Below are positions 4,407 to 35,169 of a stretch of 64,000 bases of DNA, one piece after another. Source of the DNA: a virus (Duplodnaviria > Caudoviricetes); the IMG/VR virus record IMGVR_UViG_3300031998_000003, positions 1 through 64,000 of that record. One strand, 5' to 3'. How positions within the stretch are numbered: the stretch's first letter is position 1; each line of letters opens with the position of its first letter. The position numbers and the translations under genes were made by a program. The notes below the pieces were generated by a model. It searched no databases. It was not told the origin of the DNA and was given only the letters and a program-made list of their open reading frames with translations.

Positions 4407-4460
4407 GAAATTGGGAAATTTTTTCAAATAATGATCCTGAGATTTGTTCCTGATAGGAAG

Positions 4461-4474
4461 AAACCGCTTCTTAA
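4461..4474 (+). promoter_or_regulatory. Late-type phage promoter AAAC-N7-TAA
   Basis: AAAC CGCTTCT TAA, followed by RBS GGAGGTG and TTG at 4500. Confidence 0.6.
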
Positions 4475-4499
4475 AAATTCACCACTGGAGGTGTTTGAA

Positions 4500-5246
4500 T
4501 TGCGTAACACGAGATGTTTGTTTTGTCCGAAAATATTCAATGACAAACACAAATACTGTCATCATGTAGCATCTCAGCATAACGATCAAATTCCAGAGGA
4601 CCAGGAGCCTCTGGAATTTGCATATTCTCTGTTGGTTCATAAACCAGTCGGAAGACTTTGTGTTATTTGTAAAAAGAATTCTGTCAATTTCAATCGAGAG
4701 AGTTTAAAATACGACAGACTTTGTTCAAATCCCCAATGCAAAGAAGAATATGTCAAAATCATGAAAGCCCGTATGGTAAAAGTTTACGGGCAGGAACATC
4801 TGCTAAATGATGCTGATCAACAACGGAAAATGATTTCGAATCATCCCAATGCGAGAGACTTTGTATGGGATGCTCAACACAAATTCCGTATCATAGGTAC
4901 ATATGAAGAAGATTTCCTTAGAAAGCTGAAATCGATAGGTTGGAGTCCGAACGATATTATCGCTCCATCTCCAAATAACTATTGGTACAAATGGAAAGAC
5001 GGAACTCTTCATTTGTATATCCCGGATTTCTACATCCCATCTCTCTCATTGGAAGTTGAAATCAAGGAATCCGATAACCAACATCCAAGAATGGAACATT
5101 CCAGAGAGATTGAATATCTCAAAGACGCGCGAATGAAAGCTGAGACCCAGAAATCATCTATCAACTACATCAAGATCGTTGACAAGAACTATGACGAATT
5201 CATGAGAGACTACGTCAAGTCGGACCAGAACCAACCTGAGGGGTGA
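4500..5246 (+). CDS. Zn-finger plus PD-(D/E)xK (TnsA-like / head-completion-type) endonuclease
   Basis: C2H2 motif CLFC...HVASQH, CVIC...CSNPQC, and nuclease motif YIPDFY...VEIK. The TTG start at 4500 is preferred over ATG 4431 because of the RBS and promoter position. Confidence 0.65.
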   Translation: MRNTRCLFCPKIFNDKHKYCHHVASQHNDQIPEDQEPLEFAYSLLVHKPVGRLCVICKKNSVNFNRESLKYDRLCSNPQCKEEYVKIMKARMVKVYGQEHLLNDADQQRKMISNHPNARDFVWDAQHKFRIIGTYEEDFLRKLKSIGWSPNDIIAPSPNNYWYKWKDGTLHLYIPDFYIPSLSLEVEIKESDNQHPRMEHSREIEYLKDARMKAETQKSSINYIKIVDKNYDEFMRDYVKSDQNQPEG

Positions 5247-5251
5247 TCAAT

Positions 5252-5740
5252 ATGTTGGATGAAAAAGGTATCACACTTGCTGAAGTCGAACATAAATATC
5301 CCAGAGTATTTCAAGCGTTGGGATATGATGTATTAATGGATACAGATTCATTCAACAAACCACGTGTTATTTCCACATTTGAAATGTGTGTCAACGCGGT
5401 TCTTTGTTTGTTGAAGATGAAGCCTGGTCAATATCCATCGATTCCTGAATTGGGTCTGGATGTCGAACAATACTTGCATGAGTATTCTGATGACAAGACC
5501 ATACCAGCGACACTAAAAACAAAACTCTACAATCAGTTGAACATGTTGGAGTTGACTGGAATCGAAATCGAAATCATGTTTGACAGAACTGATGATGGAC
5601 ACGATGCATTACTCATTCAAATTACGGGTAATGACAAGCTTGAATATGGCGAGAAACTGTCACCCGTAATCATAGGAATTACATATGATGAACTAAATCG
5701 TTTGTATTCCAAAGTTTCATATGCCAAAGATAGGAGTTGA
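5252..5740 (+). CDS. Baseplate wedge protein, T4 gp25-like
   Basis: LLKMKPGQYPSIPELGLDVEQYLHE resembles the gp25 G-x-x-P-x-x-P-x-x-G signature; length fits. Confidence 0.6.
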   Translation: MLDEKGITLAEVEHKYPRVFQALGYDVLMDTDSFNKPRVISTFEMCVNAVLCLLKMKPGQYPSIPELGLDVEQYLHEYSDDKTIPATLKTKLYNQLNMLELTGIEIEIMFDRTDDGHDALLIQITGNDKLEYGEKLSPVIIGITYDELNRLYSKVSYAKDRS

Positions 5741-5745
5741 ATGTA

Positions 5746-5868
5746 ATGGCAAAGATGCGCAGAACCGAAGATCCGGAAAAGGTTATCGAAGCAATCAATC
5801 CGGATATGGATGAAGAAACCTCGAACGGTCGAGGTGATGATGAGAAAGAGGAGGAGAAACCGTCATGA
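5746..5868 (+). CDS. Small acidic 40-aa peptide overlapping the amidase start (ATGA)
   Basis: RBS AGGAG at 5732-5736; MAKMRRTEDPEKVIEAINPDMDEETSNGRGDDEKEEEKPS*; the stop overlaps ATG 5865. Confidence 0.6.
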   Translation: MAKMRRTEDPEKVIEAINPDMDEETSNGRGDDEKEEEKPS

Positions 5869-7913
5869 GTAACTTTACGAACTCACCGCTAGCAACGTAT
5901 ACACGCATCTCACCAAATAAGAATTCCCCAAGAACTGAAGACAAGATCACAAAGATCATCGTTCATCATATGGCCGGTGTTGCATCTGTTGAATCATTTG
6001 GTGAACTCGTTTCAAGACCTGAAAGACAAATGTCTGCAAACTATGCAATCGGCAATGATGGACGTATCGGTCTATACTGTGAAGAGAAGGATCGTTGCTG
6101 GTGTTCATCTTCCAGATGGGCGGACAATCGCGGTATCGCGATTGAAGTATCCAACTCAAAGCTGGGAGAACCATGGCCAGTGTCTACCAAAGCATGGAAT
6201 TCTTTGGTGAATCTGTGTGCTGACATCTGCAAGAGAAACGGAATTCCGAAGATGACATATACCGGTGATACAAACGGTGTGTTGATGTTCCACCGTTGGT
6301 TTGCTGCAACTGGATGTGTTCCGATTGATACTACCGAGGTTTTGACACGTGAAGGATGGATCCCGATTCGTGATGTCAAAATCGGTGATGTGATTGCAAC
6401 AGTATCTCCGAAGGATACTTCAATCCGGTTCGATCGTGTTGAGAACATGACTCCTGTCCATAAGGATACCGTGTTTACAACAAATGGCATGTCTATCACA
6501 CGGGAACACAGAGTTCTGTACTCTGATCCGCATAAAATGGGACTCAGTATTGATGAGTACCAAAAGATCTGCAATCAACAGTTCGCGGTTCTGAATGCTG
6601 GAACATACAATGCCTCCGGCATGCCAATCTCTTCATCAGAGATGGTGTTCCTGCTTGAGATGCAGCGTGTTGGTACATATAATGAAGCTGACAAGTGTCT
6701 GGAATTCACATACATCATGGAATCCCGTGTTCAGTATTTCTACGGCTTGCTGACAAATCTCGGATACAAGTTTACCAAGGTTCAGGATGATCTCGGTCCG
6801 GTCAGATTCACAATCTATGATGATAATGCTTGGAGTCTGTGTCAGACATATCTGTCCGGCAAGGACTTCAATTGGAAATGGCTGGAGATGAATCCGACAC
6901 AATTCTCATATTTCATCTACAAAGCAACTTCTCATGTCGATACCGGTTGGGATCGGAAATACATTTCTGAATCAATGGTGAACATCAATGTGATCCAGGC
7001 GCTATGCGCATTCAATGAGCGTGGATCCAAATATGTGGAATCTGAGAATGCATTGTATGTCGAGCAAGGTTTCCGAATGATTAATCCGCGTGATGTTGTC
7101 ACAACAGATGATGTTGAAGTCGCATGTGTCACTGTCAAATCCGGATGCTTCTTGATGAGACAGCACGGCGTGACCACACTCACTGGAAACTGTCCCGGAG
7201 AATATTTGTTCTCTCGTGCACAACAGCTGTGTGATGAAGTCAATGCAAAGCTCGGTACTCCTAAAGATCCTGTAAAGCCGAAACCGAGTGATGAACCCGT
7301 CCCAGTTGAACTGGCTCCCGGAGTGTTGGTATCAATTCAGTCTGGAGCAACATACTACGATGGTGGATCAATTCCAACATGGGTGATCAATCAGAGATGG
7401 TATGTTGATTCTGTATCTGGTGACAGAGTTGTCATCAATCAGAATGAGTCCAGGAATGCTGCAATCGAATCACCGATCAATGCAAAGTACCTGACGGTTG
7501 TTCAGAATGCTGGTGCTCCGATTGAAAAATCTTTCGAACCATACATCATACCGTTGTCAGCTGGTACACAAATCTATCAGCTTGTCGGTGATAAGCTGTA
7601 TGCAAAAGAAAAAATCAAAGTATCCAGCAGATACACCATTGTCCAGGAGACTGCGGCAGGAAGCGCCAAAGTTGGTCTACTGAAGTCCGGTGTTGGCTGG
7701 GTGAAACTCGGTGCATCTAATGACACTGACACTACAATCAATCCAGGAGACACCGTTGAAGTTCTGAAGAATGAACTGTATGGTGGCGGAACCTTCACGG
7801 TCTATGAGACGGAATATAAGGTTCTTCGTGTAAACGGAGATCGTGTTGTTATCTCTTCTGATGGAAAGAACGTGACTGCAGCTGTGAAAGCATCCAATCT
7901 GCGGAAAAAATAA
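5865..7913 (+). CDS. N-acetylmuramoyl-L-alanine amidase (Amidase_2) endolysin with intein and C-terminal SH3-like cell-wall-binding domains
   Basis: KIIVHHMAG, SANYAIG, IAIEVSN, HRWFAATG^CPG amidase motifs with an intein between G and CPG; three C-terminal SH3-like modules. Confidence 0.9.
   Translation: MSNFTNSPLATYTRISPNKNSPRTEDKITKIIVHHMAGVASVESFGELVSRPERQMSANYAIGNDGRIGLYCEEKDRCWCSSSRWADNRGIAIEVSNSKLGEPWPVSTKAWNSLVNLCADICKRNGIPKMTYTGDTNGVLMFHRWFAATGCVPIDTTEVLTREGWIPIRDVKIGDVIATVSPKDTSIRFDRVENMTPVHKDTVFTTNGMSITREHRVLYSDPHKMGLSIDEYQKICNQQFAVLNAGTYNASGMPISSSEMVFLLEMQRVGTYNEADKCLEFTYIMESRVQYFYGLLTNLGYKFTKVQDDLGPVRFTIYDDNAWSLCQTYLSGKDFNWKWLEMNPTQFSYFIYKATSHVDTGWDRKYISESMVNINVIQALCAFNERGSKYVESENALYVEQGFRMINPRDVVTTDDVEVACVTVKSGCFLMRQHGVTTLTGNCPGEYLFSRAQQLCDEVNAKLGTPKDPVKPKPSDEPVPVELAPGVLVSIQSGATYYDGGSIPTWVINQRWYVDSVSGDRVVINQNESRNAAIESPINAKYLTVVQNAGAPIEKSFEPYIIPLSAGTQIYQLVGDKLYAKEKIKVSSRYTIVQETAAGSAKVGLLKSGVGWVKLGASNDTDTTINPGDTVEVLKNELYGGGTFTVYETEYKVLRVNGDRVVISSDGKNVTAAVKASNLRKK
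6315..7190 (+). mobile_element. Intein (292 aa) with a degenerate LAGLIDADG-type middle region
   Basis: Block A CVPIDTTEVLTREGWIPIRDVKIGD, block B ITREHRV, block F VACVTVKSGCFL, block G TGN followed by Cys+1; removing it restores HRWFAATG-CPGEYL. Confidence 0.92.
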
Positions 7914-8773: not shown

Positions 8774-10597
8774 ATGGAAGTTGAAAAAGGTAAAATCGTC
8801 TCTCGACCACCGAAGCCATTGCATTATTCAAAAGATGCAATGTTATTCGACGTTCGATATTCCAGGAAACCTGAATGTTTTGAAGTTATCTATTGGAATC
8901 CAACGACTCGTCAGCTTGAGGTTGAGTATGAGGAACCCATCATCGACATCTGGTTCTTGAAGAAAGAGGAACGAACCAACGAACGACAGATCGCGGAAGT
9001 TGAAATGGACCGATGCTATCAGTTCTGGTGTAAACCGTCTCAAGTATCAGCAGTCATTGCACAAGAAATCGGTGGTGAGTGGGCTGAATTCTATGAGGCT
9101 AATAAGGACCAGATGTCACGAAATGACATGTCCAAAAAGATGTGTGAATGCCCTTGGGTGTTCGTTGCAGACTTTGATCCGGTCGTACATTTCAGATTGA
9201 GATGGATTGAAGAATATGGTACCAACATTGATCTGACGAAAGTAACTGAGGCCCAACTTGATATTGAGTGTGACGTCATTGACAAACCTGCGAATGCAAG
9301 TGACATCGAGGATTCTTCAAACCCAATCAATGTTGTGTCATTGATATTGGATCATGTCAAGATCTGCGCATTATTTGTGTTGGCGCCACGGCCTAGACAT
9401 AAACTAGACAAGAAGTTCTGGGACTATTTGGATATGCAAACAAAAGAGTTTGACTGGCTAGTCAGTCACCAGGAAGAATTCAAAGAACGAATTCGGAACT
9501 ATGATGAGGACAACATCAAGTATCTGAAAGACTTCGATATTCGGATTCATATCTTCGACTTTGACGATGAGCATAAAATGATCAAGACAGTGTATGATTA
9601 CATCAACAAGTATCGTCCGATGTTCTGTGAATCATGGAATGCGAAATTTGACCATCCAAGATTATGGCATCGACTCGAGTATCTTGGCTATGATGCAAAG
9701 TCTGTTATCATTCCGAGAGCATTCAAGACCGATCAGGTGTATTATAAGGAAGACACATCTGGTACATTCCAGATGAAGAACTCAAAGGATTGGTTCTATA
9801 CCTCAACATATACCGTGTGGATCTGTCAAATGAAACTGTTTGCGGCTATTCGTAAGTCTCAGCAGGAACGTCGTTCATATTCTTTGTCGTCAGTCGGTAA
9901 GGACATGTGTGGAATTGACAAGTTGACTGATACGAAGAGTGGAACATTCCGTACATTTGCATATACAGACTTCTTGAATTTCCTACTATATAACGTCCGT
10001 GATACCGTTGTTCAATATGCAATTGCATTGAAGACGCGTGATGCTCAGACACTCGTATCTCGATCATTCAAGTTCCTGACACCATATCCGAAGTGTTTCC
10101 AGGAGACACATATCGTTCGAAACTCCCGTGAATACTATTATCGCAAATTCTCGAACATTGTACAAGCATGCAAACTGTTGTATGATACAACGATGGATAC
10201 TGCGTTCAAAGGAGCATATGTTGCGCCTCCTGAAAAGAATGCTCCAACTGGATTGGTGTTAAATGGAAAGCGACACAACAACATTATTTATGGATCCTTA
10301 GATGCTGATGCTGCATCATATTATCCTTCTACCAAGATGGGTATGAATATGGATCCGATGACATTAATATATAAACTGCGGATCAATAACGCAGTATTCA
10401 AATCCCATGAAGCATCGAATCGATCGTTAAACCAAAACTATTATTGGTATGATTCAAAGAATCGTCCACATGAGGAAGACATGGCCGGACCGTTGATCAA
10501 CACATTCAAGAATGGAAATGTCTGTTCGTTGATGCATGACTGGTTTGGCCTACCTTCTGTGACAGAATACTTTGACTATCTCGATTCAATGGGATGA
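8774..10597 (+). CDS. Family B DNA polymerase, N-terminal subunit (3'-5' exonuclease plus motif A)
   Basis: ExoI LDIECD, ExoII WNAKFD, ExoIII YNVRD, FKGAYV, motif A DADAASYYPS; lacks motifs B and C. Confidence 0.85.
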   Translation: MEVEKGKIVSRPPKPLHYSKDAMLFDVRYSRKPECFEVIYWNPTTRQLEVEYEEPIIDIWFLKKEERTNERQIAEVEMDRCYQFWCKPSQVSAVIAQEIGGEWAEFYEANKDQMSRNDMSKKMCECPWVFVADFDPVVHFRLRWIEEYGTNIDLTKVTEAQLDIECDVIDKPANASDIEDSSNPINVVSLILDHVKICALFVLAPRPRHKLDKKFWDYLDMQTKEFDWLVSHQEEFKERIRNYDEDNIKYLKDFDIRIHIFDFDDEHKMIKTVYDYINKYRPMFCESWNAKFDHPRLWHRLEYLGYDAKSVIIPRAFKTDQVYYKEDTSGTFQMKNSKDWFYTSTYTVWICQMKLFAAIRKSQQERRSYSLSSVGKDMCGIDKLTDTKSGTFRTFAYTDFLNFLLYNVRDTVVQYAIALKTRDAQTLVSRSFKFLTPYPKCFQETHIVRNSREYYYRKFSNIVQACKLLYDTTMDTAFKGAYVAPPEKNAPTGLVLNGKRHNNIIYGSLDADAASYYPSTKMGMNMDPMTLIYKLRINNAVFKSHEASNRSLNQNYYWYDSKNRPHEEDMAGPLINTFKNGNVCSLMHDWFGLPSVTEYFDYLDSMG

Positions 10598-10608
10598 AAG
10601 GAGTTATA

Positions 10609-12888
10609 ATGGAAGATTATATCGAAAACTATGGTATCATGCCATTGGCTGATACAGCACAGCACTACATGGAATTGTATGGAATCAATATCATTCTGGC
10701 ACGTGCAATTCCGATGTTGACTGATGGATTGAAACCGATTCATCGTAGAATCATCTGGACTATGTATCGCATGAATCGTGATAAGCCGATCAAGGTTGCG
10801 ACTATTGCAGGTGACACGATGAAGTTCTCACCTCACTCGGATCTTGGTACGAGATTCGTTGTTGCTGGATTGTCTCAGCCGTTCTCAAACAATGTTCCAT
10901 TGTTGACGGCGACATCTGGATATGGTACATTGACACATGGTGATGATGTTGCTCAGGTTCGTTATTGGTCAGCTGCAATCTCGAAGTTTGCAATGGAAGT
11001 GTTCTTCTCAGAGTTTGATGGTAAGGTCAACATGAAGGAAAATCATGATGGTACAGCAATGGAACCAATTACATTTCCCGCAAAGTTCCCGGTTATCATG
11101 CTGAATGGCTCGCATGGTATTGCTCTGGGTATGTCATCTGATGTACTTCCGTACAACTTGAACGAAGTTGCGGACGCAACAGTAAAGCTGTTGAAGAATC
11201 CAAAAGCTGATGTCCACCTGATTCCTGATTCCCCGACGGGATGTGACGTAATCAAACGTGATGATCAGACGTTTGTGTTCCAATCTTCATATGAGATTGA
11301 TACTGTGAACTACGTCATCGTGATTAAGAATACGCCTGTTGGTGAATATATCTCGGATATACATAAGAAGCTTTGTGCGATTCAGGACGGTCCTAACCCG
11401 ATCAAAGAACTGCTGTCTGCTGATTATGAGGGTAACAAGCAACTCCTCAAAGAAGGTAAAATTCGGTATGTAATAAGATGCAAACCGTGTAATCTGTATC
11501 AGGTTCTCGAGACTCTGTTCAAACGTGTTCCCGGATTTCGCATCACAGTGTCGACAAAGAATGCGTCAGTCATCGATGCGCATCTTCGGACGCAATACTA
11601 CAATGAGCGTCAGATTCTGTTAGCATGGATCCAGAACAGATTGAGTGAGAAGAGAGCATGGTTCTTACGTCAGCTTGTTGAGAAGACAACCAAGAAGAAC
11701 ATGTTGCTCGGAAAGAAGTTCATGTTGTCTCCTGAGAATCTGAATAAGACCATCAAGATATTCAGAGCATGTGAACATGAATCTGAAATCATTCAGGCAC
11801 TCGTTGATGCTTACAAGGGTAAAGTCACAACATCGCAGGCAAACTATATCTCTGACACAAAGCTTTCGAAATTGACGCATGGCGAATACCTGAAGACCCT
11901 AGCAGAGATCGAGGAACTAAGTGTTGCGATTGATGAGTTGCATGATATTGTGTCTTCACCTGAGAAGATCCGTGATAAGATCATCGAAGAAGTTATGCAG
12001 ATCCGTAAAGACTTTGGGCAAACCCGCAGAAGCAAAGTCTTGAATAATAATCTGGGTGAAGCTGTGAATATCGGCATCTGTCAGATACTAACAGACGGAT
12101 CTATTCTATTCTCCGAGACTGAAAATCCGGATCACTTCTCATCAGATGTATATCCGATATCTGGTGATGAAGTATGTCTGATTGACGAGGCTGGGCGATT
12201 CCTGTGGGTGAATACAAAAAAGGTTCCATACGACAAACCAATGACATTGACATCAATTGGTAAACAGCAGATGGGTAACTGTATTGGTGTTGTGTCGAAT
12301 CGGGAACATCAAATCATTATGCTCACAAACAAGGGTCGTATCAAGTACATGCCGGTTGACCGCATCCCATCGAATGCATCTAGAAAACAGCTGATTCCAA
12401 TCGATTCTGATGAGCATATCGTTTCGATATTGGAAGTTTCTGATAATTCACAAGACCTGTTAATGTATACGAAAGACGGTCTTGGGAAGCGGTTCTCTAT
12501 TAATGATTTGAATCTGGTTATGTCTCCTGACGCACAAGGACAGTTCATTGTCAAGGATTGTCAAGCTTGCGGAATCTTCACTGTAAACTCCTCTAAGCCG
12601 CTGATTTTCTATGTTACACGGCTTGGAAGAGTCCGTGTCAACCAATCGAAGTTCCTGGTCGCTGGAAAGAAGTTTGGTGGTCTGAAACCCATTATCAAAC
12701 TGACACCGCAGGATGATCTTGTTGCAGTATTCTGTGTCGATAAGGACCAATCTGTGACGATGTATCATGCAGATGGTCGTGTATCAACTGTGAACGTCGA
12801 TTCGTTGACTCCAACCACAATGGCTACACCGCCGACGAAACCGAAACATGTTCCCGCAATCAAATTGATCAGGGCGACTGTTTCATGA
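10609..12888 (+). CDS. gyrA: Type IIA topoisomerase subunit A (GyrA/ParC-like) with C-terminal beta-pinwheel-like repeats
   Basis: RAIPMLTDGLKPIHRRI, SPHSD, catalytic QVRY, MEP..FP..FP..LNG..GIA.G, and C-terminal repeats of the LTNKGRIK / YTKDGLGK / VTRLGRVR type. Confidence 0.85.
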   Translation: MEDYIENYGIMPLADTAQHYMELYGINIILARAIPMLTDGLKPIHRRIIWTMYRMNRDKPIKVATIAGDTMKFSPHSDLGTRFVVAGLSQPFSNNVPLLTATSGYGTLTHGDDVAQVRYWSAAISKFAMEVFFSEFDGKVNMKENHDGTAMEPITFPAKFPVIMLNGSHGIALGMSSDVLPYNLNEVADATVKLLKNPKADVHLIPDSPTGCDVIKRDDQTFVFQSSYEIDTVNYVIVIKNTPVGEYISDIHKKLCAIQDGPNPIKELLSADYEGNKQLLKEGKIRYVIRCKPCNLYQVLETLFKRVPGFRITVSTKNASVIDAHLRTQYYNERQILLAWIQNRLSEKRAWFLRQLVEKTTKKNMLLGKKFMLSPENLNKTIKIFRACEHESEIIQALVDAYKGKVTTSQANYISDTKLSKLTHGEYLKTLAEIEELSVAIDELHDIVSSPEKIRDKIIEEVMQIRKDFGQTRRSKVLNNNLGEAVNIGICQILTDGSILFSETENPDHFSSDVYPISGDEVCLIDEAGRFLWVNTKKVPYDKPMTLTSIGKQQMGNCIGVVSNREHQIIMLTNKGRIKYMPVDRIPSNASRKQLIPIDSDEHIVSILEVSDNSQDLLMYTKDGLGKRFSINDLNLVMSPDAQGQFIVKDCQACGIFTVNSSKPLIFYVTRLGRVRVNQSKFLVAGKKFGGLKPIIKLTPQDDLVAVFCVDKDQSVTMYHADGRVSTVNVDSLTPTTMATPPTKPKHVPAIKLIRATVS

Positions 12889-15898: not shown

Positions 15899-16270
15899 TT
15901 ATGTGTCTGCTTCATCGGAGTCGTCGAGTTCAACGTCTGTTTCATCAACCTCGACGTCTTCATCTGACAGCTCTTCATCTTCGGATGGATCGATGTCATC
16001 GTACTCTTTCTTAGAGAGTTGCTTGTAAACTTGATGACAACCCGTCGATGCAGCGCCGGCGGACAAGCCGATGAAAATGGCCTCTACAAGATTATTGCCC
16101 ATTGTAACGTTCGGTGTAAAGTATCCAATGATACCGAGAGCAACACCATACACCAATGAGAAAATCGGGATCAGACGATTAATCTTGTATCCGAAAGTTT
16201 TTGCGATCATTTTTGTGACTTCGTTCAAAGCCGCGACGAACGCAGAGATGGTTACGATAGAAAACTCCAT
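15899..16270 (-). CDS. Phage holin
   Basis: Three TM segments; RLIPIFSLVYGVALG and GLSAGAASTGCHQVYKQL resemble Gram-positive phage holins; acidic tail; start MEFSIV with RBS GGAG. Confidence 0.75.
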   Translation of the reverse strand: MEFSIVTISAFVAALNEVTKMIAKTFGYKINRLIPIFSLVYGVALGIIGYFTPNVTMGNNLVEAIFIGLSAGAASTGCHQVYKQLSKKEYDDIDPSEDEELSDEDVEVDETDVELDDSDEADT

Positions 16271-16359
16271 TTTATCAACTCCCTGTGCATATATAATTAA
16301 TATGAATACTGGGTAGCGATCCAACATTCCAGTATTAATATTTCGTGAGGAGGATCTTT

Positions 16360-33557: not shown

Positions 33558-34460
33558 TCATTTCATCAACGCTTCACGAGTTTCGAGATTACATGTTGCT
33601 GTCAGTTTCAGTTTCTGATCCCATTGGAATCCGAGGACTGCAGACATCGTCTTCTTCCCGAAGTCACCGTCATCTTCACCCTTCGTGAGATATCCCTTTG
33701 CGATCAGCTGTTGCTGGAGCCACTTCACATCATCACCGTTGTCACCACGTTTCAGCTCTTTGACATCCTCAGTCAAGAGCACCCAACCAACACCGGACTT
33801 CAGCTTACCGTATTTCAGTGAACCGATTGTGGTTTCTTGTACGATCGTGTAGATACTCTCGACAGAAATCATGCTGACCTGTTCGACCTTGTTGTCATCG
33901 ATACGGAAGATTTTGGTACCGAACGGAAGCCGCTTCGTATATGGCTTGAAAGGTTCGGGTTCTGGACCATTCGGTTGTAAAACAAATCCGAGGAACATGT
34001 AACCTGAACCTGCTCCCCAGTTTCCGTCACTGCCCTTCTTTCTGTTTGTCGTCCAGAATGCATTTGGACAATCGTATCCAGACTCGGATGTCACAATGGA
34101 TCCGTCAGCATTAATCTGTTCGACGATGGCGACATGTCCTGCGCCATCTTTGTAGCTGAGTGTGGGGCCTGCTTGCCATACAATGATGGCACCAAGCTGT
34201 GGATTCTGTGAAGTTTTCAATCCGTGCTGAATGCCGTTTGCATACATATTCTCTGCGTTGATTGGATCAATCAGTGAGAATTTTGTATCACCAGCAATCT
34301 CATGGAAACGTCCACAAGCATATCCAACACAATTGTGAAGTACATTGCAATCCGGATCTGTTGGACTACCCAAGATCGCAGTACTGTATCCACCGCTGTC
34401 TTTGCGGATATAGTACTTGTTACCCTTTTCAGGTCTCGTGAGTCTCGGTTTAAATGCCAT
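33558..34460 (-). CDS. CHAP-domain endolysin with SH3-like and PG_binding_1-like domains
   Basis: NCVGYACGRF, GHVAIVE, TSESGY; LKRGDNGDDVKWLQQQL...DGDFG.KT..AV..FQ. Confidence 0.88.
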   Translation of the reverse strand: MAFKPRLTRPEKGNKYYIRKDSGGYSTAILGSPTDPDCNVLHNCVGYACGRFHEIAGDTKFSLIDPINAENMYANGIQHGLKTSQNPQLGAIIVWQAGPTLSYKDGAGHVAIVEQINADGSIVTSESGYDCPNAFWTTNRKKGSDGNWGAGSGYMFLGFVLQPNGPEPEPFKPYTKRLPFGTKIFRIDDNKVEQVSMISVESIYTIVQETTIGSLKYGKLKSGVGWVLLTEDVKELKRGDNGDDVKWLQQQLIAKGYLTKGEDDGDFGKKTMSAVLGFQWDQKLKLTATCNLETREALMK

Positions 34461-34488
34461 GGTAACCATCCTTTCTATTTGAATATAA

Positions 34489-35169
34489 TCAATCAGTTGC
34501 TGTGCTGATCGCAAGATATCCATCCGTGATGTATTCAACACCATCGAGTGTGAATGTTCCGAAGTTCAATGCATATGCTGTATCACGAATGATCATGAAC
34601 GCTTTTGGTGTAACACTCTTGGTACCAAGATTTGCATTTGTAGCAAACGCCTGTAAAACGGTTTGTGTACCAACTTCGGATGTGACCGGTGTAGTTGTAT
34701 TAAATGATGGATTATCCCCATACGCTATGTGACGAAACGGTTTGGTGAAACTGGCACTACCCTGCGCGAAATCTACTCCGATGTATGCCGGCACGCCATT
34801 GTTTGTTTTGGTTATCATGAAATGCATCTGATAAGCATATCCGTTAGAGGTTGTAGCAGTTCCTTGGACAATAATACCATTTTCGCAACCGATATAATTT
34901 GTCACATTCTGTTCGCTGGAATGTATAAGCAGATTAACTTCGGCTAAAGTCACATAATCATTCGGACTTCGGTAGACCCTGTAATAGCCTGGAGTTGACG
35001 AACCGTCTGGTCTGTCGGAAAATTCCATCATGATATGCCTATCGGCATCCAAGCACATGATTTGATTATTCGGACCCAGTTCAACCGATGCAAAAATACT
35101 TGGAACCAATGTATCTAATAACTGTTTGAACTGGTTTGCGTTTTTCAGTACTCCTCGAACAATTGCCAT
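34489..35169 (-). CDS. Virion structural protein (hypothetical)
   Basis: In the late structural operon; beta-rich composition. Confidence 0.6.
   Translation of the reverse strand: MAIVRGVLKNANQFKQLLDTLVPSIFASVELGPNNQIMCLDADRHIMMEFSDRPDGSSTPGYYRVYRSPNDYVTLAEVNLLIHSSEQNVTNYIGCENGIIVQGTATTSNGYAYQMHFMITKTNNGVPAYIGVDFAQGSASFTKPFRHIAYGDNPSFNTTTPVTSEVGTQTVLQAFATNANLGTKSVTPKAFMIIRDTAYALNFGTFTLDGVEYITDGYLAISTATD

Follow-up and report, generated by a model that had tools for sequence, protein, structure and literature searches.

A predicted Amidase_2 endolysin of an uncultured jumbo phage is interrupted at its putative zinc-ligand cysteine by an intein with an apparently dead endonuclease domain

In textbooks, inteins live in genes for replication, repair, and packaging; homing elements in general insert at the most conserved catalytic motifs, and late in the homing cycle an intein is expected to be fixed and its endonuclease dead. 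Here, we describe a 292-amino acid (aa) intein within the endolysin gene of an uncultured phage. The gene lies in a 64,000-nucleotide stretch of DNA (hereafter, the window), which covers the first 64 kb of an IMG/VR virus record of 248,669 bp with an estimated completeness of 92%. The phage inteins known from terminase, ribonucleotide reductase (RNR), DnaB, and DNA polymerase are likewise selfish homing elements at conserved sites of essential genes; however, they reside in replication or packaging genes, while the window intein resides in a lysis enzyme. The endolysins T7 lysozyme, PlyL, XlyA, and Ts2631 share with the window gene product the PF01510 domain, the fold (as modeled for its intein-free homologue), the His/His-x7-Cys site, and a modular C-terminal wall-binding part. 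They are uninterrupted, whereas in the window the intein would part the second and third ligands until splicing.

The closest described inteins by structure are PhoVMA (Pyrococcus horikoshii V-ATPase A, PDB 7qst) and TliVMA (7qsu/7qss), the top Foldseek matches, which share a Hint domain with a nested LAGLIDADG domain. PhoVMA, like the window intein, has a whole homing endonuclease architecture, lacks the active-site Asp in both helices, and has a shortened block E (PMC8966425). Both differ from the window intein in their archaeal ATPase host, extra accessory domains, and length (361-432 aa), are ~13-14% identical to it, and have no reported block-F Cys. By sequence, the family profile scored best in PDB with the AceL NrdHF split intein (PDB 6zgq), which resembles the window intein, as class 3 inteins do, in having a Cys at block F position 4, a Thr two residues before the terminal Asn, and no penultimate His. 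In the AceL “MCT” variant (PMC7891396), as in the window family, position 12 of block B holds a hydrophobic residue other than Trp. In contrast to class 3 inteins, the window intein has Cys1 and a Val at block B position 12, and it stands in cis with an endonuclease-like domain rather than being split. Of the traits of conditional-splicing switches such as Msm DnaBi1 and Pho RadA, the window intein displays the prerequisite, cysteines at the splice center.

The gene is laid out as follows:

5865..7913, + strand: endolysin precursor gene, with N-extein, intein, and C-extein in one open frame of 682 aa plus stop.
5865..6314, + strand: N-extein, residues 1-150, most of the predicted Amidase_2 catalytic domain (Pfam PF01510), with His34/His35 and His143.
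6315..7190, + strand: intein of 292 aa, Cys1 to Thr-Gly-Asn292, precursor residues 151-442, placed by its excision in the homologue P0109, the structure model, the fold, and the family profile.
6315..6611, + strand: predicted N-terminal lobe of the Hint domain, intein residues 1-99, with block A Cys1 and block B T62-R-E-H65 (6498-6509), from residue invariance and a beta-strand lobe in the model.
6612..7049, + strand: predicted LAGLIDADG-fold endonuclease-like domain, intein residues 100-245, from alignment, fold matches, substitution rates, and constant length.
7050..7190, + strand: predicted C-terminal lobe of the Hint domain, intein residues 246-292, with block F Cys271 (7125-7127), Arg282-Gln283, and block G Thr290-Gly291-Asn292, from residue invariance.
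7191..7913, + strand: C-extein of 240 aa plus stop, whose first codon (7191-7193) is Cys+1 of C-P-G, from conservation and Pfam coverage.

The insertion lies between Gly150 and the Cys of the H-x7-C-P-G motif. It begins with CVPID at 6315, carries TREH at 6498-6509, and ends with TGN at 7190, the next codon (7191) being the Cys of CPGEY. A preliminary description of the window, made from its letters, had proposed a complete intein at 6315-7190 splitting the Amidase_2 motif, and every landmark was found where it had been placed. In a search of 5.8 billion proteins, we found >100 clusters (90% identity level) of full-length homologues, ranging from 89% down to 36% identity, with the insertion at the same place in all and without stops or frameshifts in >100 homologues. 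One homologue, P0109 (392 aa), lacks the insertion and reads HRFFAATA/CPGEYLFS (the slash marks the junction). Because this intein-free allele reads straight through, both junctions are exact. The Amidase_2 model aligned to P0109 over positions 2-131 of 131, continuously across the junction, and the structure model of P0109 (predicted local distance difference test, pLDDT, 86) resembles PlyL, XlyA, AmpD, LysGH15, Ts2631, and PGRP amidases. The comparison shows that the native H-x7-C-P-G site and a full Amidase_2 domain would exist solely after excision and ligation.

From PF01510 and the His/His-x7-Cys ligands, the gene is predicted to encode an Amidase_2 zinc N-acetylmuramoyl-L-alanine amidase endolysin. 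It is the sole Amidase_2 gene in the 249-kb record, its intein is the sole copy of the intein family there, and a GGAGGAG ribosome-binding site stands 7 nt upstream of its ATG. Pfam Amidase_2 matched residues 26-131 with 56.3 bits against a cut-off of 26, ending at profile position 114 of 131. PHROG endolysin families matched the precursor at E=1e-44, with 10 PHROG lysis families covering its first ~150 residues, and the window amidase is nearest to endolysins of gut-Firmicutes phages. The C-extein runs from Cys+1 through the last amidase helix and a Pro/Lys-rich linker to beta-rich wall-binding repeats, with a weak KOW/SH3-like match in its tail. H34, H35, H143, and C151 (spliced numbering; C443 in the precursor) are invariant in 61 intein-free homologues, and C151-P152-G153 is conserved. 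The H-x7-C spacing is the same as that of T7 H122/C130 and Ts2631 H131/C139; the C139S mutant of Ts2631 is inactive (PMC4573324). A phmmer search of P0109 against PDB sequences gave no match, and the A2 profile reached AmpDh2 alone in the same sequences, with an alignment that did not span the junction. Because these searches failed, the zinc-ligand assignment rests on Pfam coverage, invariance, fold matches, and the published spacing. The aligned position and the spacing both agree with the earlier proposal that the Cys after the intein is the third zinc ligand. Cys+1 would thus be both the splice nucleophile and the residue aligned with the third zinc ligand of T7-lysozyme-type amidases.

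The insert itself appears to be a genuine intein, in which a Hint fold holds a nested LAGLIDADG-fold domain; the limits of the two were taken from an AlphaFold (AF2) model (pLDDT 97.2; predicted template modeling score, pTM, 0.93). With the intein alone, Pfam returned Hint_2 at E=0.24 and nothing else, a PHROGs search gave no match, and tblastn among phage records found an RNR intein and a terminase intein and nothing else. Because the Pfam and PHROGs searches gave too little, it is the empty allele, the fold, and the family profile that identify the intein. Built from 129 members, this profile matched, among PDB sequences, the AceL NrdHF intein (E=8.6e-6) as well as PI-MtuI and a bacterial intein-like domain. 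Foldseek on the model returned the TliVMA, PhoVMA, PI-SceI, and PI-PfuI inteins as the best matches, with E down to 3e-12, followed at lower rank by I-DmoI, I-SceI, and the hedgehog Hint domain. Structural neighbors in BFVD were inteins in viral polymerases, RNR, terminases, portal, and methylases. Of the profile searches that the preliminary description had suggested, the one with Amidase_2 thus scored above cut-off on the N-extein and at full length on P0109, and Hint_2 alone was weak.

Among the 129 family members, C1, G14, H65, C271, R282, G291, and N292 do not vary, and at least 90% have T62. The splicing residues are likewise constant over 58 clade clusters; the invariance of C1 is partly by construction, as the alignment rows were chosen for Cys at position 1. 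T290 was found in 21 of the 21 clade members sampled. The window intein thus carries the expected C1, T62-x-x-H65, N292, and Cys+1, but in place of the penultimate His of block G the whole family has Gly291. The functional AceL NrdHF intein likewise has no penultimate His (PMC7891396), and its absence is therefore not disqualifying. The residue two before the Asn is always Thr in the clade of the window intein and V, T, or I in other family members, while block B position 12 is Val67 in the window and its clade and mostly Met or Val across the family.

Class 3 inteins are defined by the lack of Cys at position 1, a Cys at block F position 4, and a W-C-T triplet (PMC7891396). The window intein has the Cys at block F position 4 (C271) and the Thr at block G position 5 (T290); however, Cys1 is present throughout its clade and there is no Trp at block B position 12. 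Judged by these residues, it is not class 3 by the published definition, and it shares two of the three signature positions. Three family members (P0261, P0270, and P0283) begin with Pro instead of Cys and therefore require an internal nucleophile. Members that have Cys1 may likewise be able to take the class 3 route, which starts from an internal Cys.

The endonuclease-like domain looks decayed at its catalytic motifs. The motif 1 remnant is FLLEMQRVG at 6648-6674, and every clade member has Val, Ile, or His in place of its Asp. The motif 2 remnant, FIYKATSHVDTG, at 6912-6947 has lost its catalytic Asp; this motif reads SHVDTG or SHEDGT in the window and close relatives and varies among the nearest ones between D, N, R, and G. 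Most of the family has LVAVQADGHY and FLDxILxYDGC blocks with EFHxxK conserved between them, and the His and Lys of EFHxxK are missing from the window and close relatives. In the model, the motif helices span residues 107-119 and 194-204, and helix 2 stops four residues early. Thus, the two-helix fold of an active LAGLIDADG enzyme is present without the acidic residue at each helix end (QRVG compared to QADG and SHVDTG compared to YDGC). The net charge is about -9 in fixed inteins and about +4 in mobile ones, with most of the ~13-charge loss in the Hint lobe; this acidic shift fits a loss of DNA binding. Because both catalytic aspartates and the positive charge have been lost, the window intein would no longer home. 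The blocks that had been called decayed from the window alone (LLEMQRVG and KATSHVDTG) do align to the QADGHY and YDGC blocks of relatives, with the catalytic Asp absent.

The family shows two evolutionary regimes on an extein tree of 187 sequences from which the inteins had been removed. The motif-intact inteins (34 tips) require 30 gains or losses, compared to a mean of 31.9 for shuffled labels, and for at least 10 of them there is an intein-free allele whose extein is 95-99% identical. This scatter on the tree and the near-identical empty alleles mark the motif-intact inteins as mobile at present. The sporadic distribution and horizontal spread of an active homing element are therefore found in these sister inteins but not in the window's type. 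The motif-dead inteins form a single clade (FastTree support 99; IQ-TREE support 100 by the Shimodaira-Hasegawa-like approximate likelihood ratio test in a 73-row subsample), in which 58 of 59 rows are occupied. The sole empty member is P0109, whose nearest neighbor is only 74% identical. When homologues were ranked by the C-extein only, the best 47 database matches were all intein-bearing except P0109 and one fragment. A collection of intein-free alleles, as the preliminary description had suggested, thus yielded P0109 inside the clade and others among sister phages.

Within the clade, intein identity correlated with extein identity (r 0.56-0.58) about as the two exteins did with each other (0.50), while 101 of 561 pairs in the motif-intact set had inteins much more alike than their exteins. 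The GC content of the intein is 0.444, compared to 0.449 and 0.454 for the exteins. A recent acquisition of the intein is rejected in view of this extein-like GC content and the co-divergence. Comparison of the two sets shows that in the window's lineage the intein is fixed and inherited vertically with the gene, its endonuclease being probably dead. Like PhoVMA, the window intein is at the fixation/degeneration stage of the homing cycle. The earlier suggestion that homing was lost while the splicing residues stayed intact is thereby strengthened: the motif-dead inteins form a single clade and co-diverge with the extein, the splice residues are invariant, and the catalytic Asp is lost in the clade and intact in relatives.

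The residue at position -1 (Gly150, 6312-6314) also differs between the two regimes. Of the 58 fixed-intein alleles, 57 have Gly there. Ala or Ser stands at this position in 33 of the 34 alleles with a mobile intein and in 66 of the 88 intein-free alleles scored, and P0109 has Ala. This pattern could reflect co-adaptation of intein and extein or co-conversion upon intein loss. In other lineages we found shortened lysin inteins, a 223-aa form that has lost part of the endonuclease domain and a mini-intein of 145 aa, among P0107-P0119 (612-613 aa) and P0122 (529 aa); these are later stages of the homing cycle.

The family is large. An exhaustive HMMER search over 1.84 billion representatives detected it in 217 clusters (50% identity) at E<=1e-3, most of which are lysins; 101 of the clusters had E<=1e-10. 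Thus, the statement of the preliminary description that inteins are rare in cell-wall hydrolases does not hold in metagenomes. Of 128 scored N-junctions, 89 follow H-x7, at the same site before the zinc Cys, and these include amidase subfamilies too diverged for the N-extein query. The remaining ones lie after a His (six), after A-W-H (two), or in further contexts (31), many ending in GN/CPG. The comparison shows that the intein family is a homing element aimed at the most conserved amidase motifs. Because the family homes into such motifs, insertion at the zinc ligand needs no regulatory explanation.

Six proteins (P0212, P0213, P0265, P0285, P0296, and P0321) carry inteins at alternative Amidase_2 sites. 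A second site lies after a His in the first-zinc-ligand motif (...I-x-I-H/C) in P0212, P0265, P0296, and P0321, and a third is A-W-H/C; P0212 and P0213 each have two inteins in one lysin. The 31 junctions in further contexts (e.g., P0272, P0290, P0305, and P0311) are in proteins unrecognised by the amidase query. Their N-flanks are like ...AAWGGHx/C or ...ELWSxSxGKV/C and their C-flanks are CPG or CPx, and their hosts may be other lysin families.

In the literature covered by our search for inteins in endolysins, amidases, or peptidoglycan hydrolases, we found no description of one. A survey of ~800 actinophage inteins makes no mention of lysin, endolysin, or amidase, and 224 mycobacteriophage Lysin A genes contain no intein (PMC3314691). 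Thus, the stage that the intein has reached is known, while for its host class, phage endolysins, we found no published description in the literature searched. Database annotation is blind to these inteins, as every homologue is labeled only Amidase_2 or hypothetical. A large and apparently undescribed intein family in phage lysis enzymes widens the known host range of inteins. Among exteins that are near-identical or closely related, one enzyme occurs in three states: empty, carrying a mobile intein, and carrying an intein that is long fixed and nuclease-dead. Since endolysin activity is trivially assayed, the family offers an unusually clean natural experiment on whether inteins are merely selfish or sometimes useful. 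For the mining of metagenomes for antibacterial endolysins, the intein must be recognised and removed to obtain the active 390-aa enzyme.

Two further genes of the window bear on lysis:

15899..16327, - strand: candidate holin, Pfam Phage_holin_5_2, 31.4 bits against a cut-off of 29.2.
33558..34544, - strand: second peptidoglycan hydrolase-like gene, with CHAP and PG_binding_1 domain matches.

The holin gene has the same relative place in the relative L008. Because the endolysin has no signal peptide, it should depend on a holin in the usual way. The product of the window CHAP gene may be either a second endolysin or a lysin of the virion; the gene adjoins very large, probably structural open reading frames (ORFs). 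A second CHAP gene lies outside the window, at G000:C1:221994-222248. The unspliced endolysin precursor is likely, although not certainly, inactive, as certain host enzymes stay active with the intein still in place, for example, in the KanR-DnaBi1 series (PMC7360933).

We consider it probable, while leaving real room for doubt, that the window holds a splicing-competent intein in the sole Amidase_2 endolysin of the phage and that this intein is a stranded selfish element, now fixed, for which no regulatory role need be assumed. Its self-removal would be autocatalytic and constitutive. The carbonyl of Gly150 would be attacked by Cys1, or possibly by block-F Cys271, after which the acyl group would move to Cys+1 and Asn292 would cyclise. 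The product would be a 390-aa amidase with a wall-binding tail, awaiting the holin like other endolysins. In the window's lineage, fixation would have been followed by the loss of both catalytic Asp residues and of the positive charge and then by vertical inheritance. The dead endonuclease scaffold would be kept since the splicing domain depends on it for folding, a mutualism of the Hint and endonuclease domains, and retention would be further favored as a frameshift or imprecise deletion in this domain would destroy the endolysin. In other inteins, deletion of the endonuclease domain impairs splicing (“mutualism”), and the scaffold is selected regardless of nuclease activity (PMC8966425).

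Several points weigh against this reading, and some of them feed its rivals. Splicing of the window precursor is a predicted activity, and the penultimate Gly with three Cys residues at the splice site is compatible with slow or conditional splicing. The retention of the intein in 58 of 59 clade clusters over deep divergence, despite intein-free alleles in sister phages, could reflect selection for the intein. Ratios of nonsynonymous to synonymous substitution rates (dN/dS; Nei-Gojobori on codon alignments of the window gene with nine relatives) were 0.05-0.17 for the endonuclease remnant, 0.04-0.35 for the Hint lobes, 0.02-0.07 for the N-extein, and 0.09-0.28 for the C-extein, values that are rough, as dS is saturated (mostly >1), with dN far below dS everywhere. 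In the window's lineage, the full-length endonuclease-like domain thus appears to be under purifying selection. Within the clade, the mean top-residue frequency is 0.68 in the endonuclease remnant compared to 0.62 in the Hint domain, and K203, T205, H207, W212, and R214, near-invariant and clade-specific, stand at the former active site in place of LAGLIDADG motif 2. This conservation is more than a purely structural role obviously requires. One way to read these points is that the intein is maintained as a gate on endolysin maturation, dependent on zinc, thiol redox, or time, in which zinc or thiol oxidation restrains splicing through a metal site or Cys1/Cys271 disulfides and the K-x-T-x-H...W-x-R motif of the dead endonuclease takes part. 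Cys1, Cys271, and Cys+1 are all invariant, and splicing of the class 3 intein Msm DnaBi1 is blocked by zinc at the block-F Cys, where oxidation forms a disulfide (PMC7360933). The retention, the purifying selection along the whole length, and the -1 Gly of 57 of 58 clade members, a hint of intein-extein co-adaptation, would also suit a gate. However, the same Cys triad and Gly-Asn end occur in mobile, sporadic relatives, which makes them traits of the family rather than adaptations of the fixed lineage. In sister phages, endolysins that are nearly identical work whether or not they carry the intein, and insertion at a catalytic motif is the general habit of homing elements noted above. Moreover, with a holin for lysis timing and a second lysin-like gene in the genome, a timer or switch is unnecessary. 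We therefore regard the gate, which the preliminary description had put forward as a domesticated timer or a metal/redox switch on lysis, as an attractive idea that the comparisons made here do not support, and as unlikely.

The conservation of the remnant could alternatively mean that the endonuclease-like domain has acquired a new job, such as a role after excision or the binding of a partner from host or phage. The residue frequencies, the near-invariant residues, and the low dN/dS of the remnant would be expected, and the intein keeps a length of 290-298 aa across all 58 clusters, without deletions, though the 223-aa and 145-aa forms exist elsewhere. Against this, the net charge of -9 argues that the dead endonuclease has not kept DNA binding, no partner or activity can be named, and the documented dependence of splicing on a nuclease-dead scaffold in other inteins would account for the retention; a new function thus seems rather improbable. 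That the endonuclease is still active via noncanonical residues, with full occupancy resulting from very efficient homing, is very improbable. The full-length LAGLIDADG fold is under selection and many clade members have E-D-G in motif 2, but the motif 1 Asp is gone in every clade member, the EFHxxK His and Lys are gone, motif 2 is variable, helix 2 of the model is four residues short, ~13 positive charges are lost, and the intein co-diverges with the extein rather than spreading. The gene could also be a nonsplicing relic, with lysis done by the two CHAP-domain genes, one of which has a PG_binding_1 tail. The strong purifying selection on both exteins (dN/dS 0.02-0.13) and on the intein, the >100 homologues without stops or frameshifts, and the invariance of all splice residues and zinc ligands make this scarcely credible.

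The split RNA-polymerase beta subunit of the record is nearest to those of the Bacillus phages AR9 and PBS1 and Staphylococcus jumbo phages, and the source virus is an uncultured AR9/PBS1-like jumbo phage of 249 kb. A blastn search of the endolysin gene against 50,697 phage records gave no match, and tblastn of the precursor among phage records found intein-free amidases of Firmicutes phages alone, with no cultured-phage counterpart, in a set from which the window's own record may be masked.

Around the endolysin gene, a very acidic ORF of 43 codons (5737-5868, + strand) overlaps the endolysin start (ATGA), and the same small gene is present in the relatives L007-L009. In the relatives P0012, P0014, L002, and L004, an acidic stretch of ~42 aa is fused in frame at the endolysin N terminus. 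Two genes upstream of the endolysin lies an endonuclease-family gene (4431-5246, + strand; phrog_15137, DUF7487) with a Cys/His-rich N terminus, which is kept at the same place in L007-L009. Downstream, a 607-aa ORF (8774-10597, + strand) matched the DNA polymerase family phrog_3011 alone, with a faint DNA_pol_B_exo1 match in the relative L008. It is directly followed, with overlapping stop and start, by a topoisomerase II/gyrase A-like gene (10594-12888, + strand). The polymerase represented by 8774-10597 may be split, as in AR9-like phages.

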